This document shows positions 14,825 to 24,994 of a stretch of DNA of 27,799 bases, one piece after another (the first letter of the stretch is position 1; every line of letters starts with the position of its first letter). Made by a program: the position numbers and the translations under genes. Source of the DNA: Lysobacterales bacterium (GTDB lineage: Bacteria > Pseudomonadota > Gammaproteobacteria > Xanthomonadales > SZUA-36); NCBI GenBank assembly GCA_041584255.1, contig JBFHEJ010000001.1:1-27799 (forward strand). Reading direction: 5' to 3'. The notes under the pieces were generated by a model that searched no databases, had not been told where the DNA came from, and saw only the letters and a program-made list of their open reading frames with translations.

Positions 14825-14899
14825 TGGCGCTCCCTACGAGAATCGAACTCGTGTTTCCGCCTTGAGAGGGCGGCGTCCTGACCGCTAGACGAAGGGAGC
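14825..14899 (-). tRNA. tRNA-Glu (anticodon CUC), CCA encoded
   Basis: Minus strand GCTCCCT..AGGGAGC acceptor stem, anticodon arm CCGCC-CTCTCAA-GGCGG, T-loop GTTCGATTC, 3' GCCA; 75 nt. Confidence 0.97.
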
Positions 14900-17729: not shown

Positions 17730-18581
17730 ATGGAGTCCATATCGGATCGCCGATCAATGCGTGAGCGGGTTTCCGGCTGGAAGGGCCGGGGACATCGCGT
17801 GGCACTGGTGCCTACTATGGGCAATTTGCACGAAGGACACCTGTCGCTGGTGCGCGTTGCCCGCCGGCTTGCCGACCGCTGCATCACCAGCATCTATGTG
17901 AACCCCGCCCAGTTCGGCGAGGGCGAGGATTTCGCGCGCTACCCGCGCACCCTGGAGGCCGACCTGGAGAAACTCGAGCGCTCAGGCTGCGACGCGGCCT
18001 TCGTGCCTGATACCGCCACGCTGTATCCGTACGGCCTCGAGCGTGCCACGCTGCTGCGCGCCGCGCCCGATCTGGCCCAACGCCTCGAAGGCAGATTTCG
18101 GCCGGGCCATTTCGACGGCGTCGTCAGCGTGGTGGCCAGGCTGTTCGCCGTGGTGCAGCCGGATATCGCGGTGTTTGGTGAGAAGGACTTTCAGCAGTTG
18201 CTGGTCGTGCGCAGGATGACCCGCGACCTTGGCTTCAACCTCGAGATTTATGGTGCCGAGACCATACGGTCCCAGGACGGGCTGGCACTGAGCTCTCGCA
18301 ATGCTTATCTCGACGAGGCCCAGGTCGGCGCCGCCAACACACTCAACCTGGTGCTGGCGGAGGCGGCAGCCGCCGCATCCGAAAGCGGTACCGTGCTGGA
18401 GACGCTGGAAACCGCGGCCACCCAATCACTGGAAGCCGCGGGCCTCAAAGTCGACTACCTGGCGATCCGGCGTGCCGAAGATCTGGCGCCACCGGACGAT
18501 GCGGACAAATCATTGCGTGTGCTGGCGGCAGTCTGGTGTGGTTCGACGCGGTTGATCGATAACGTTGCCGCGGAGCGGTAG
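17730..18581 (+). CDS. panC: Pantoate--beta-alanine ligase
   Basis: VPTMGNLHEGHLSL, SIYVNPAQF, RPGHFDGV, FGEKDFQQL, DGLALSSRN, RLIDNV. Confidence 0.97.
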   Translation: MESISDRRSMRERVSGWKGRGHRVALVPTMGNLHEGHLSLVRVARRLADRCITSIYVNPAQFGEGEDFARYPRTLEADLEKLERSGCDAAFVPDTATLYPYGLERATLLRAAPDLAQRLEGRFRPGHFDGVVSVVARLFAVVQPDIAVFGEKDFQQLLVVRRMTRDLGFNLEIYGAETIRSQDGLALSSRNAYLDEAQVGAANTLNLVLAEAAAAASESGTVLETLETAATQSLEAAGLKVDYLAIRRAEDLAPPDDADKSLRVLAAVWCGSTRLIDNVAAER

Positions 18582-18632
18582 CTCGGAACGATCATCCGGA
18601 GCGGGGCGAATCGAAGCAGTGTCGCAAAATAG

Positions 18633-18660
18633 TTGCAATCGGGCCCGGTAGTGGTATCAT
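18633..18660 (+). promoter_or_regulatory. Sigma70-type promoter for the candidate sRNA
   Basis: TTGCAA (18633-18638)-N16-TATCAT (18655-18660) with TG at the extended -10 position. Confidence 0.6.
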
Positions 18661-18665
18661 TACAA

Positions 18666-18771
18666 CCGACCTTGGCAAAACTGCAACGTTTTCCAAGGTT
18701 GCAGGGCGCGAAAGACGGGTACATCACTCCAAAAGCCTGCCTCTCCCAAGCAATTGGGAGAGGTTTTTTTT
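18666..18771 (+). ncRNA. Candidate ~105-nt small RNA (or pgi leader/attenuator), family unassigned
   Basis: Bracketed by the promoter above and an intrinsic terminator; 5' hairpin accttgg-c-aaaac/tgcaac/gtttt-ccaaggt; no SD-led ORF on this strand. Confidence 0.55.
18740..18771 (+). terminator. Rho-independent terminator
   Basis: cctctcccaa-GCAA-ttgggagagg (10-bp perfect stem, GNRA loop) followed by T8. Confidence 0.92.
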
Positions 18772-18800
18772 GTTCAAAAATTTGTATAAAAAACCAAATA

Positions 18801-18813
18801 AAACAAATAGTTA
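18801..18813 (+). promoter_or_regulatory. Possible IHF site in the AT-rich region upstream of pgi
   Basis: AAACAAATAGTTA (one mismatch to WATCAANNNNTTR), preceded by A-tracts. Confidence 0.35.
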
Positions 18814-18963
18814 AATCATTTGGTCCGCGCCATGAAGTGTCTCATTGGTCACAAATGATGCGCCCTTGGGCTGCTGTATCGATCCTCGCCATCACGCACA
18901 AGCAGGCTGCCGCCAGGCCGAAAAATATGGTCCAATGCCCCGCAGTACACCCGGTTTGAGCCC

Positions 18964-20619
18964 ATGAATGCACCCGAAAAAGCCTCTGAAAGCGTGAAAA
19001 TCGGCCACTTGTTGCAAAATTACAACAATTCCCGTCCGCCCATTGGACATTTGCTGGACGAGGATCCGCAGCGATTTGAGCGATTTTCGAGGAATGCCTG
19101 TGGCCTATTGCTGGACTACAGCCGCTGTGGGCTGGACAGCGAGTCCTTCCAAAACCTCGTTGATCTCGCCCGGGCCTGCGATGTGGCGGGACAGCGCGGG
19201 CGCATGTTCGGTGGGGAGGCCATTAATTTCACCGAGAAGCGGCCTGTGCTTCATCGGCTGTGGCGTGATCACTGCTTTGGCGACCTGCTTCCCGCGGAGC
19301 AGGCCAAAAACCTGAACCGGGCCGTCGAGCGCATGGGCCATGTCGCCGGCGCTTTGCGGCGCGGGGCACTGCCAGATGGTGGTGCGGGTCGAATCACGGA
19401 TGTGGTGCACATCGGTATCGGCGGTTCATTGCTGGGTCCACGGTTGCTGGTCGAGGCGTTCGCCGGCGAGGGCCATGATGGTGAAGTCCAAGTGCCGCGG
19501 ATTCATTTCCTGAGTTCGGTCGACCCAGGGCCACGCGAGTTTTTGCTAAAAAGCCTCGATCCGGAGACCACCGCGCTCATCGTGGTGTCGAAGAGCTTCA
19601 CAACGGCTGAAGTCATGACGCATGCACGGGCTCTGTTCGACTGGCAGGAAACGGCGCTCGACAGCGGCGAAGTTGCGCGCCGTCGTTTCGGCGTCACATC
19701 CCGCCCGGACAAGGCCGCCGCGTGGTCCATTCCCGATAATCACCTGCTGGAGATGGGCGAATGGACGGGCGGGCGATACTCGTTGTGGTCGCCCGTCGGG
19801 CTGACCGCGGCCATCGTCATGGGGCCCCAGGCATTCGAGCAGCTACTTGCGGGTGGGGCGGCGATGGACCGTCACTTTCGGGAAACCAGGTTGGCGTCCA
19901 ACCTGCCGGTCATCGCGGCCATGCTCGATGTCTGGCACCGCAACGCCTGCGGCCTGCCGAACCTGGCCGTCATTCCGTACGACAGCCGGCTCGCCGAGTT
20001 GCCCGGCTGGCTGCAGCAGGTGACGATGGAGTCGAACGGCAAGCACAGCAAGATCGATGGCAGCCATGTCGACAGCGAAACCTCGCAGGTGATTTTCGGT
20101 GATTGCGGCACCGACGCCCAGCATTCCTTTTTCCAGGCCTTTCACCAGGGCACCAGCGTGGTGCCGGTGGATTTCATCGGCGTTGCACAGTCCGGTCACG
20201 CGGACAACGAGGCCAAGGCGCGTCTGCTTTCGCACATGCTGGCCCAGGCCACTGCGCTGGCCCGGGGAAGGACCCTCGATGAGGTCCGTGACGAGATGCG
20301 CAGCCAGGGCGTTGCCGGAGATGAGATAGACCGCCTCGCGGTGCACCGGGTGATGCCGGGCGACCGGCCGTCCAACGTCATCGTGATGGATGATTTCAGC
20401 CCCGCAACGCTGGGCGCCCTGCTGGTGTTCTATGAGCACCGCGTATTCGTGCAAAGCGTGATCTGGGGCATCAACGCCTTCGACCAGTGGGGCGTGGAGC
20501 TGGGCAAGACGCTGGCGGACGCCATCGAGCCTTCAGTGGCCGACCCCTCAACGCCTCCCCCGGATTCGCTACCGGAACTGAAGGGCCTACTTACCCACAT
20601 CCACAGCAAGAGCGGGTAA
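18964..20619 (+). CDS. pgi: Glucose-6-phosphate isomerase
   Basis: INFTEKRPVLH, HIGIGGSLLGP, VSKSFTT, GGRYSLWS, QQVTMESNGK, GTDAQHSFFQ..HQG, NAFDQWGVELGK. Confidence 0.96.
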   Translation: MNAPEKASESVKIGHLLQNYNNSRPPIGHLLDEDPQRFERFSRNACGLLLDYSRCGLDSESFQNLVDLARACDVAGQRGRMFGGEAINFTEKRPVLHRLWRDHCFGDLLPAEQAKNLNRAVERMGHVAGALRRGALPDGGAGRITDVVHIGIGGSLLGPRLLVEAFAGEGHDGEVQVPRIHFLSSVDPGPREFLLKSLDPETTALIVVSKSFTTAEVMTHARALFDWQETALDSGEVARRRFGVTSRPDKAAAWSIPDNHLLEMGEWTGGRYSLWSPVGLTAAIVMGPQAFEQLLAGGAAMDRHFRETRLASNLPVIAAMLDVWHRNACGLPNLAVIPYDSRLAELPGWLQQVTMESNGKHSKIDGSHVDSETSQVIFGDCGTDAQHSFFQAFHQGTSVVPVDFIGVAQSGHADNEAKARLLSHMLAQATALARGRTLDEVRDEMRSQGVAGDEIDRLAVHRVMPGDRPSNVIVMDDFSPATLGALLVFYEHRVFVQSVIWGINAFDQWGVELGKTLADAIEPSVADPSTPPPDSLPELKGLLTHIHSKSG

Positions 20620-20819: not shown

Positions 20820-22277
20820 TCAGCGGGATTTCTTGAGCACGCCGAGCAGGCCGCGCATGATCTCGCGGCCGAGCATGGAACCCATCGAGCGCAGGGTGCT
20901 CTTGACCATCGCTTCGCTGGGTGACTGACGTGAGCTCTTGCGTGCTGCTTTCTTTGCCGGGGTCTCGCCGGACTTCTCCAGCTCCTTCGCTATTTGCTCG
21001 GCACGGGCCTGCAGTACCTCGGCGGCCGACTCACGATCGAGCGGCATGTCATAGCGGGTGCCGACCGGGCTGCGGCCGCGCACCTCGTTGAATTCCTCCT
21101 CGCTTGCCGGTCCGATTCGTGACGTCGGTGGCCGAATCAGCGTGCGGTCGACGATACCCGGGATGCCTTTCTCCTGCAGGGTGGACACCAGGGCCTCCCC
21201 CACGCCGAGCTGCGTGATGGCTTCCTCGACATCGAGATTGGGGTTGCTGCGGAAAGTCTGCGCCGCGGCGCGCACCGCCTTCTGATCGCGGGGCGTGTAG
21301 GCGCGCAACGCGTGCTGGATGCGATTGCCGAGTTGCCCCAGCACGCTGTCGGGAATATCGAGCGGGTTTTGGGTGACGAAAAACACGCCCACGCCCTTGG
21401 AACGGATCAGGCGAACGACCTGCTCGACTTTCTCCAGCAAGGCGCGCGGCGCGTGGTCAAAAAGCAGGTGGGCCTCGTCGAAGAAAAACACCAGCTTGGG
21501 CTTGTCGGGGTCGCCCACCTCCGGTAACTCCTCGAACAACTCCGAAAGTAGCCACAGCAGGAAAGTCGCATAAAGCCTCGGATTGTTGATCAGCGAATCG
21601 GAAGCCAGTGCATTGATCACTCCGCGCCCGTTGAGGTCGGTGCGCAGCAGGTCGGAAAGCTCCAGAGCTGGTTCGCCGAAAAATTCCTCGGCGCCCTGGT
21701 CTTCCAGCACCAGGAGGCGCCGCTGGATGGCGGCGACGGAGGCCGGACTGACGTTGCCATACTGGTGGGAGAGCGTTTTTGCGTTCTGTGCCACGAAACG
21801 CAGCAGGGCCTGCAGGTCTTCGAGATCGAGCAACAGAAGGCCGTCCTCGTCGGCCACGCGGAACGCGATGTTGAGCACGCCCTCCTGCGTGTCGTTGAGT
21901 TCCAGCAGGTTGGCCAGCAGCAGCGGACCCATTTCGGAGATCGTCGTGCGGATCGGATGACCCTTGATGCCGAACAAATCCCAGTAGACCATCGGCCAGC
22001 TGGTCGGGGCGAAGTCCGGGATGCCAATTTTTTCCAGGCGCTCGTCGATCTTGGGATGCGGGCTGATGGGCTGGCTGAGGCCGGACAGATCGCCTTTCAC
22101 GTCGGCCAGGAAAACCGGCACGCCGATGCGCGAGAATCCTTCCGCCAGCACCTGCAGTGTTACGGTCTTGCCTGTGCCGGTTGCCCCGGTGATCAGGCCG
22201 TGTCGATTGGAGTAGCCAGGCCGCAGCCATTGCTTCTGTTCACCTTTACCAATCAGGATGGGAGATATTTCACTCAC
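20820..22277 (-). CDS. DUF853/YjgR-family HerA-like P-loop ATPase
   Basis: GTG 22277 with SD AAGAGG; [19 protein letters not shown] (Walker A), [20 protein letters not shown] (Walker B), [32 protein letters not shown]. Confidence 0.9.
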
Positions 22278-22375
22278 GGCGGACGCCTCTTTTTTATAGC
22301 GGTACGGTCGGTTAAGCTTCCGGACTTTCCTTGCGCCTTCCCGGGCCGACGAAGATAACCGAGCCAGAGTAACCA

Positions 22376-24994
22376 ATGGAGCAACAGGCCTACAAGCCCA
22401 GCGAGATCGAAATCCAGGCGCAGCAGCGCTGGGATGACAGCGGTGCGCACAACGCCGACGAGGAAGGGCCGGGTGAGAAATTCTATTGCCTGTCGATGCT
22501 GCCGTACCCCTCCGGCGCCCTGCACATGGGCCATGTACGCAACTACACCATCGGCGACATCGTCAGCCGTTTCCACAAGATGCAGGGCAAAAACGTCCTG
22601 CAGCCGATGGGCTGGGACGCGTTCGGCCTGCCGGCGGAAAATGCCGCGATCAAGAACCAGACAGCGCCTGCCAGGTGGACGCGCGAAAACATCGCCCGCA
22701 TGCGCGGGCAGCTCAAGCGCCTGGGCTTTGCCTATGACTGGCGGCGTGAAGTCACGACCTGTGATCCCGATTATTACCGTTGGGAGCAGCAAATGTTCAC
22801 GCGCCTCATGCGCAAGGGCCTGGCCTATCGCAGGGACGCCGAGGTCAACTGGGATCCTGTCGACCAGACGGTACTGGCCAACGAACAGGTGGTTGATGGG
22901 CGAGGCTGGCGCTCGGGTGCTGTGGTCGAACGCAAGTCCATACCCCAGTGGTTCCTGAAGATTACCGATTACGCCGAGGAGCTGCTCAACGGGCTGGATG
23001 ATCTCGAGGGCTGGCCTGAAGCCGTCAAGATCATGCAGCGCAACTGGATCGGTCGGTCCGAGGGCATCGATTTCGTCATGCCGATTTGTGACGAAAAAGG
23101 CCGACCCGACCCTCCGGGGCGCACTGTCGAAGTATTCACGACACGCCCCGACACCGCCTTTGGAATGACCTACGCGGTGCTGGCGCCAGAGCATCCCCTG
23201 GTGGCGCAAGTGACCAGTAACGAGCAGCGCAGCGTCGTGGAGGCGTTTGTTCAGAATGTGAAGAAGGCTTCCGAGGCGGACCGCCTGACCATCGAAGCCG
23301 GCAGCGCCGCGATGAGCAAGCGCGGCGTCTTCACCGGCGCGTACGTGGTCAATCCCTTCAACCGCAAGCCGGTGCCGCTCTACATCGCCGATTATGTCCT
23401 GATGGGCTACGGCACGGGCGCGATCATGGCCGTGCCGGGCGAGGACGAGCGCGATTGGGTTTTTGCCACGGCGCACGATCTTCCCATTATCCGTACCGTT
23501 CAGCCCCCCGAAGACTGGGAAGGCGGCGCTTTCACCGACGAGGGGCCGAAGATCAACAGCGACTGGCTGGACGGCCTGGACATCGATGAGGCCAAGAGTA
23601 AGGCCATCGAATGGCTGGAAGGTGAGGGCATCGGCAGCCGCAAGGTCAATTACCGGCTGCGGGACTGGGGAGTCAGCCGCCAGCGCTACTGGGGCTGTCC
23701 CATCCCCGTTATTTACTGCGATGCCTGCGGTGCCGTGCCGGTACCGGATGATGAGCTGCCGGTGGTGCTGCCCGAGGACGTCACCTTCATGGGCGTGCAG
23801 TCGCCGATCAAGGCCGATCCCGAGTGGCGCAGGACGACATGCCCCGAATGCGGTGCAGATGCCGAGCGGGAAACCGACACCTTCGACACCTTCATGGAGT
23901 CGTCTTGGTACTACGCGCGTTATTGTTCACCCGGCGCGGACGCCATGATCGACGACCGCGCCGAGAAGTGGTTGCCGGTCAACCAGTACATCGGCGGCAT
24001 TGAACACGCCATCCTGCACCTGATGTATTTCCGCTTCTATCACAAGCTGTTGCGTGACGCGGGCATGGTGTCTTCTGACGAGCCTGCCACGCGCCTGCTG
24101 TGCCAGGGGATGGTGGTGGCCGAGACCTACTATCGTGATGGCGATGCGGGCGGCCGCGTGTGGATTCACCCCGACGATGTCGAGGTCAGCCGTGACGACA
24201 AGGGCAGGGTGACGGGCGCCACGCTGAAGAGCGACGGCAGGCCGGTGGAGATTGGCGGCGTCGAGAAAATGTCCAAGTCGAAGAACAACGGCGTCGATCC
24301 CAGGGGCCTGGTCGACCGTTACGGGGCCGACACCGTGCGGCTGTTCTCGGTTTCCGACTCGCCGCCCGATCAGTCGCTCGAATGGTCGGAAGCCGGCGTC
24401 GAGGGCGCCCACCGGTTTCTCAAGCGGGTTTGGTTCCTGGTTCAGCAGCATGCCGCCGCCGGGCCAGGCCCCGAACTCGATCGCGAAGCTCTGGACAAGC
24501 AGCAAAAAGACATGCGGCGTCTCGTGCATGACGCCATCGCCAAGGTGGGCGACGATGTCGAACGACGGTTTACCTTCAACACTGCAGTGGCCGCCATCAT
24601 GGAATTGTGCAATCACCTGTCCCGTTTTGACGACGACAGCGCGCAGGGGCGCGCCGTTCAGCAGGAGGCCTGGCTGGCCATCGTACGCATGATCTGGCCC
24701 TTCACGCCGCACATCAGCGAGGCGCTGTGGGCGGTTCTGGGGCAGACCGATGACATTGCCGTGGCTGGCTGGCCGGCGATCGATGAATCCGCGCGGGTCA
24801 GGGAACAGATCACCCTGGTGGTGCAGATCAACGGAAAACTGCGTGCCCGCCTCGACACACAGCCGGGCGTCAGCAAGGACGAGGTGCTGGCCCAGGCCCG
24901 GGCACTCGACAACGTGCAGCGACACATCGAGGGCAAGGAGGTCCGCAAGGTCATCCATGTGCCGGACCGGCTGCTGAATATCGTCGTCGGCTGA
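22376..24994 (+). CDS. leuS: Leucine--tRNA ligase
   Basis: [13 protein letters not shown] (HIGH motif), TTRPDT editing motif, [29 protein letters not shown]. Confidence 0.98.

Follow-up and report, generated by a model that had tools for sequence, protein, structure and literature searches.

Positions 18633-18771 on the forward strand of the window (the whole 27,799-nucleotide stretch of Lysobacterales DNA analyzed here) very probably hold a genuine, selected gene for a small RNA (sRNA). The explanation that we favor, and consider probable, is an independent gene with its own promoter and terminator that encodes an RNA of ~103-106 nt, a regulator acting in trans by Hfq-type base pairing. The initial annotation had proposed a self-contained ~105-nt sRNA between panC and pgi, and the comparative data uphold this proposal: the whole interval bounded by the -10 box and the U-tract is conserved throughout the order, and both of its hairpins covary. 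The element stands apart from chance because it is conserved, rather than because of the pattern scan, which found one sigma-70-like site in 18300-19200 (the promoter of the element) versus 0.4 expected from shuffles.

Promoter and RNA structure

Pfam assignments give the gene order in the window as pcnB, folK, panB, panC, the element, pgi, and a convergent HerA-like ATPase gene, with PanC at 17730-18581 and Pgi at 18964-20619. A tRNA gene (Rfam RF00005, 64.9 bits) lies just upstream of pcnB at 14828-14899 on the reverse strand. The features of the locus are listed below.

18633-18660, forward strand: sigma-70-type promoter from the pattern scan, with -35 TTGCAA (18633-18638), a 16-nt spacer, TG (18652-18653), and -10 TATCAT (18655-18660)
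18661-18668, forward strand: discriminator (T)ACAACC(G); ACMACC stands 3' of the -10 box in almost all homologues
18667-18701, forward strand: 5' hairpin from the minimum-energy fold and covariation, with loop motif GCAAC (18683-18687)
18700-18738, forward strand: mostly unpaired conserved core, with CAGGGCGC (18702-18709) and the seed UCACUCC (18724-18730) within ACAUCACUCC (18721-18730)
18739-18771, forward strand: intrinsic terminator from the scan, with stem 18739-18764, a GCAA loop, and U8 (18764-18771)
20820-22376, reverse strand: HerA-like ATPase gene (PF05872, 744 bits), convergent with pgi and directly 3' of the sRNA where pgi is absent from the locus

Judged by its sequence, the conserved block upstream of the RNA reads as an extended -10 sigma-70 promoter. 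Nearly all homologues in the order share the -10 block, (T/A)GTGGTAnnnT(T) with ACMACC after it, and its core TGTGGTAnnnT is conserved across families together with the RNA. In f1, the window's family, and f7, the Wenzhouxiangella family, this block is preceded at a distance of 17-18 nt by a TTGGCA/TTGCAT-like -35 element. From the distance to the -10 box, we infer a transcription start at ~18666-18669. Readings of this promoter as a Fur box or as a sigma-E or sigma-54 site were rejected by eye on spacing and sequence. We take the discriminator to resemble those of rRNA promoters.

Elsewhere in the same genome (G000), the TGTGGTAnnnT extended -10 block also occurs in AT-rich intergenic DNA at G000:C18:4136 and G000:C161:133, with no sRNA-like sequence after either site. 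Four loci of another family, f11 (L061, L065, L071, and L072), carry a duplicated GCAACA-N2-4-TGT(A/G)TGG motif at about -45 and -20, upstream of the sRNA, that could be a putative regulator binding site.

The 109-nt RNA folds with a free energy of -41.9 kcal/mol (z = -3.99), and none of 200 dinucleotide shuffles folds as well. Each part of the architecture given in the initial annotation was recovered: the promoter TTGCAA-N16-TATCAT with its extended TG lies at the same coordinates, the 5' hairpin placed at 18669-18699 falls inside the predicted hairpin, the supposedly unpaired stretch ACAUCACUCC (ACATCACTCC at 18721-18730) is unpaired in the minimum-energy fold, and both the scan and the sequence return a 10-bp GCAA-loop terminator with U8. 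The terminator stem has 11 pairs counting the closing G-U, 10 of them Watson-Crick.

Covariation supports both hairpins. In the order-wide alignment, which was fitted to the covariance model and so is biased towards structure, 19 of the 20 modelled pairs show double changes, and 92% of cells are paired; shuffling the columns lowers this share to 67%, and sliding the partners to 60% or less. Taken separately in that alignment, the 5' hairpin has compensatory changes at all six outer pairs (91% of cells paired) and the terminator at nine of ten (99%). An independent, unfitted MAFFT alignment agrees, with double changes at 14 of 26 pairs versus 5.4 expected. Nearly all homologues retain a U-tract of ~7 to 9, which is interrupted in a few.

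Between the hairpins, a block of ~38 nt (GCAGGGCGCGAAAGACGGGTACATCACTCCAAAAGCC) is almost invariant among 26 sequences from 19 genera, and ACAUCACUCC includes the near-invariant core UCACUCC. UCACUC(C/U) is present in 53/53 order-wide homologues with a mean unpaired probability of 0.63, and AGGGCG(C/U) in 51/53 with a mean of 0.46; GCAAC lies in or near the loop of the first hairpin in 34/53, mostly unpaired. Two variants of the seed are found among homologues, GGUACAUCACUCC and GGUAAUCGUCACUCC. At one locus of the Lysobacteraceae-type family (L204, G175:C1:2683559-2683677) the seed is degraded, with GUCUUUAC in place of GUCACUCC; this homologue may be a decaying copy, and most genera of its family are without the gene.

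The element does not appear to encode a protein: the transcript contains neither ATG nor GTG, and indels among homologues are not multiples of three. An open reading frame on the reverse strand (18455-18727) was rejected as a gene, its start not being conserved and its frame being broken by indels in other families.

Conservation and distribution

A query with the whole intergenic region matched every other sampled genome of the window's family (24 genomes, 19 genera) and one genome of another family. All of these alignments are limited to 18649-18771 of the window and have 76-95% DNA identity; at the same loci, protein identity is 48-60% for PanC and 36-67% for Pgi. Conservation spans the stretch between the -10 box and the U-tract, and the alignment shows none upstream of the -35 region or 3' of the U-tract. 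A pattern search of a second sample found the gene in 31/31 genomes of the family, which consists of metagenome-assembled genomes (MAGs) only; the window itself occurs in marine metagenomes. Searches of its own genome returned a single copy of the element, with no second copy and no sibling sRNA or shared promoter motif elsewhere.

Two covariance models were built, R1 from 26 sequences and the broader R2 from 53. Of 151 genomes from the order (Xanthomonadales/Lysobacterales), 100 contain exactly one good match to R2, and 10 of the 12 sampled families are represented among them. Matches were found in 17/17 genomes of f1, 8/8 of f3, 16/17 of f4, 4/4 of f5, 2/2 of f6, 16/17 of f7 (which includes Wenzhouxiangella, the homologue being present in the cultured Wenzhouxiangella sp. 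15190 and W. limi C33), 14/15 of f8, 1/1 of f10, 14/17 of f11 (which includes MAGs labelled Lysobacterales and "uncultured Rhodanobacteraceae"), 6/17 of f12 (which includes a MAG labelled Lysobacteraceae), 1/18 of f2, and 0/17 of f9. Match panels were checked for about nine families beside f1 (f2, f3, f4, f5, f6, f7, f8, f10, f11, and f12, with f18 lying outside the order). The checked matches adjoin panC and/or pgi, and nearly all contain CAGGGCGC and (A/G)UCACUCC. The position of the homologues is almost always between panC and (panD-)pgi. Sampling of 150 other families of the class yielded one further true homologue, also between panC and pgi, and one spurious match.

The element is scarce in two families. 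Within f12, the Lysobacteraceae-type family, it is present in 7 of 41 genomes and 5 of 30 genera, and an unfiltered model search found none at the panC locus of five negative genomes. A second family, well sampled with complete genomes, is almost entirely without it.

Part of the sequence is present in 14 sequencing runs, ten of which are RNA libraries from soil, estuary, sediment, wetland, and seawater. Contigs of four RNA libraries, from relatives of the window, match within 18649-18771 and then run into unlike flanks, at a low depth of 4-7x. These contigs could be DNA carry-over or longer transcripts; they show that relatives were present in those samples.

Predicted function and alternative readings

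In the mechanism that we propose, the sigma-70 promoter, a strong one with an extended -10 box, would start transcription at ~18666-18669, giving an RNA made up of the covarying 5' hairpin, the ~38-nt largely single-stranded core, and a Rho-independent terminator with a U8 tail. This RNA would act in trans as an Hfq-type base-pairing regulator. UCACUCC looks like AUCACCUCC, the 16S anti-Shine-Dalgarno sequence, less one C, and we therefore predict that it occludes GGAGUGA-type ribosome-binding sites; pairing there would either prevent translation or lead to decay. CAGGGCGC and the GCAAC motif of the loop may serve as a second seed or a protein contact, and the A-rich stretch before the terminator would bind Hfq together with the U-tail. 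That the sRNA pairs with ribosome-binding sites in concert with Hfq is the view towards which we lean on this analysis.

The Hfq-type architecture suggested in the initial annotation agrees with the build of the element (5' hairpin, open core, A-rich stretch, and terminator with U8) and with the presence of hfq in the genome, where a PF17209 match of 100.8 bits lies at G000:C9:7142-7327. Two features expected of a class I-like Hfq-dependent sRNA are present, namely a terminator with at least 6-7 U (here U8) and a conserved, accessible single-stranded seed.

Searches for targets covered several scales. Across the 31 family genomes, matches to the complement of the 14-mer seed at 13 or more of 14 bases included no recurrent site beyond the gene itself, the rest being at chance level. 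In a low-power screen of 1059 orthologous 5' regions shared by the window's genome (76% complete) and 2.4 Mb (83%) of a second genome (G003), shared seed matches did not exceed those of shuffled seeds. Duplex energies of the whole core on the 5' regions of its own genome were uninformative, dominated by GC-rich noise, and the only site with complements of both motifs was the antisense strand of the gene itself. Genes of the same genome with GGAGUGA at the Shine-Dalgarno position were listed as candidate targets; of these, a DUF4156 lipoprotein, a DUF1508 protein, and MsrB were rejected, their GGAGUGA sites not being kept in orthologues.

Two further observations concern the same genome. Three of ~6 complete genes for IPTL-CTERM (PF18203) surface proteins have a UUGGAGU(GA) ribosome-binding site, which is complementary to the sRNA seed and makes these genes candidate targets:

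G000:C188:312-330, G000:C213, and G000:C205 (own genome): 5' ends of IPTL-CTERM genes with UUGGAGU(GA)

The other is a 15-mer, AGGGCGCGAAAGACG, at G000:C146:1792-1806 on the reverse strand that is identical to the sRNA core (window 18703-18717; BLAST E 0.06) and may be due to chance. Located within a long hairpin that precedes a U-tract, it belongs to the 3' region of another gene (524 aa) and has the same sense as the sRNA, and it was rejected as a target on this ground.

A protein-binding or otherwise non-base-pairing RNA, in which a protein would recognize the long invariant core (CAGGGCGC...UCACUCC) or the core would mimic the 3' end of the 16S rRNA, is an unlikely reading that nonetheless draws on three observations. 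The ~38 consecutive nucleotides that are almost invariant across 19 genera extend far beyond the usual length of a seed, three separate motifs are conserved order-wide, and the screens revealed no conserved mRNA target. However, those screens had low power, covering one 76%-complete genome and 83% of a second; the RNA lacks reiterated protein-binding motifs, GGA or others, of the sort that CsrB/RsmZ-type RNAs have; and it is built like a base-pairing sRNA, with a 5' hairpin, an open core, and a U-tailed terminator. We likewise think it quite improbable that the element is an order-wide core RNA that does not pair with mRNAs, its center being read by a protein or serving as a decoy of the 16S anti-Shine-Dalgarno end. 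On that view, the discriminator of its promoter, with its likeness to those of rRNA promoters, could tie the RNA to growth rate. If true, the protein-read or decoy reading would imply a type of housekeeping regulatory RNA that has not so far been described in the order.

The neighborhood of pgi bears on another alternative, a cis-acting leader or attenuator in which transcription from the conserved promoter would stop at the hairpin unless a signal permits read-through into panD and/or pgi. The element runs in the same direction as pgi, ~130-190 nt upstream of it, both in the window's family and in the Rhodanobacteraceae-labelled family, and the scan returned no second consensus promoter between the terminator and pgi. 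In a Wenzhouxiangella-family genome (L047:1611-2068), the sRNA lies between panC and a PanD-like ORF (MQIQLLKAKIHRATVT...) whose start is ~75 nt past the terminator, with pgi next; the window's family is without panD at this site. Against such a leader, pgi is absent nearby in 6 of the first 26 loci, and in three checked genera a convergent HerA-like gene stands immediately downstream of an element that is 83-90% identical to that of the window. The order is pcnB, folK, element, and convergent HerA-like gene in genus g4; pcnB, element, and HerA-like gene in genus g6; and panB, panC, element, and HerA-like gene in another genus, so that the element is retained at loci without pgi or without panBC. 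The downstream gene varies among families, and alignment showed no conserved spacer between the element and pgi. Complementarity between the sRNA core and the pgi 5' regions of seven loci did not exceed shuffled controls. Minimum-energy, centroid, and consensus folds contain no antiterminator helix competing with an arm of the terminator, and the core is single-stranded. Taken together, these points make attenuation very unlikely. From the position before pgi, the initial annotation had taken a hint of control of carbon metabolism, a link that finds no support in the several genera with the HerA-like gene, rather than pgi, downstream. Its other suggestion, a terminating leader for pgi, fared no better: panD intervenes in another family, and the element is kept where pgi is missing and therefore does not read as a pgi leader.

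The operon upstream raises a different question about how the RNA is made. A scan found no other terminator-like site between the panC stop (18581) and the hairpin of the element. With no other terminator found 3' of panC, transcripts of pcnB-folK-panBC probably stop at this hairpin as well, and some of the sRNA could arise from them. A stronger version, in which the sRNA is cut from the panC 3' UTR of the pcnB-folK-panBC transcript and the promoter-like site contributes little, is a variant of our main explanation that differs only in the making of the RNA. Operon transcripts must enter the element and end at its hairpin, and irrespective of the downstream gene, the element is always found after the pcnB-folK-panBC cluster. 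But a processed 3' UTR would not be expected to show the order-wide conservation of a -10 block and a -35-like element seen here, and several loci have pgi downstream without panC upstream; we regard this origin as highly doubtful.

It is barely credible that the element is no gene at all but just a folK-panBC terminator with a fortuitous promoter match upstream: the hairpin is indeed the sole terminator after panC, but ~90 nt 5' of its stem, with a second hairpin that covaries and with invariant motifs that are unpaired, are conserved across ten families, and the conservation data, as we read them, already contradict this view. The initial annotation had named a lack of conservation 5' of the terminator as grounds for this view, and what we found there is clearly the opposite.

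Relation to known RNAs and significance

Our preferred reading, a trans-acting base-pairing sRNA, places the element in a known type, and we file it as a new family of that type (Hfq-type base-pairing sRNAs) rather than as a member of any described one. A search of the window with the Rfam 15 covariance models gave the tRNA elsewhere as the only match; around the element the best matches had E values of at least 1 and scored far below the gathering thresholds of their families. No Rfam family was found at 17 homologue loci or at five panC loci without the element. The initial annotation did not recognize the RNA as Spot42, PrrF, RsmZ, 6S, or SRP, and the Rfam scan concurs, also giving no match to CyaR, MicA, or the Xanthomonas sX RNAs. 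In the parts of the literature covered, which include surveys of Xanthomonas sRNAs, we found no sRNA at panC, panD, or pgi.

The closest likeness in design is to the CyaR (RF00112)-type Hfq-dependent sRNAs of Gammaproteobacteria, which share a length of ~100 nt, an own promoter, a 5' hairpin, an unpaired anti-Shine-Dalgarno-like C/U-rich seed, an A/U-rich stretch, an intrinsic terminator with a long U-tail, and one syntenic site. They differ in taxon and genomic site, neither sequence nor covariance model matches, and the invariant core of the element is much longer. MicA (RF00078) is an enterobacterial envelope-stress sRNA whose 5' region pairs with the ompA ribosome-binding site. The core of the element (GAAAGACG...AUCAC.UCC) loosely resembles that region in our estimation. 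However, there is no Rfam match at E up to 10, the location differs, and the promoter is a sigma-70 extended -10 rather than a sigma-E promoter, and we treat the resemblance as coincidence.

The sRNAs described in Xanthomonas (sX1-sX15, sRNA-Xcc1-4, RsmU, and others) come from the same bacterial order and are of similar sizes, but their Rfam families match neither the window, nor the 17 homologue loci, nor the five Lysobacteraceae-type panC loci. DapZ and MicL, of the 3' UTR type with an own promoter, offer a further parallel: the element also lies directly 3' of a biosynthetic operon, in the same direction, and shares its terminator. Unlike in those RNAs, the promoter of the element is intergenic instead of inside the upstream coding sequence, and in some genomes the upstream gene is not panC.

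The element is a single-copy, syntenic sRNA kept in about two thirds of the sampled genomes of the order. If the model plant pathogens belong to the element-poor families (the Lysobacteraceae-type family and the other family of complete genomes), this would explain why it was overlooked. Its covariance model is ready for use in annotating many environmental genomes. The value of the finding lies in a well-defined, testable new family rather than in a new principle. We know of no sRNA biology in Wenzhouxiangella, in the Rhodanobacteraceae-labelled MAGs, or in the uncultured marine and sediment groups, and in all of these the element is a candidate core post-transcriptional regulator.
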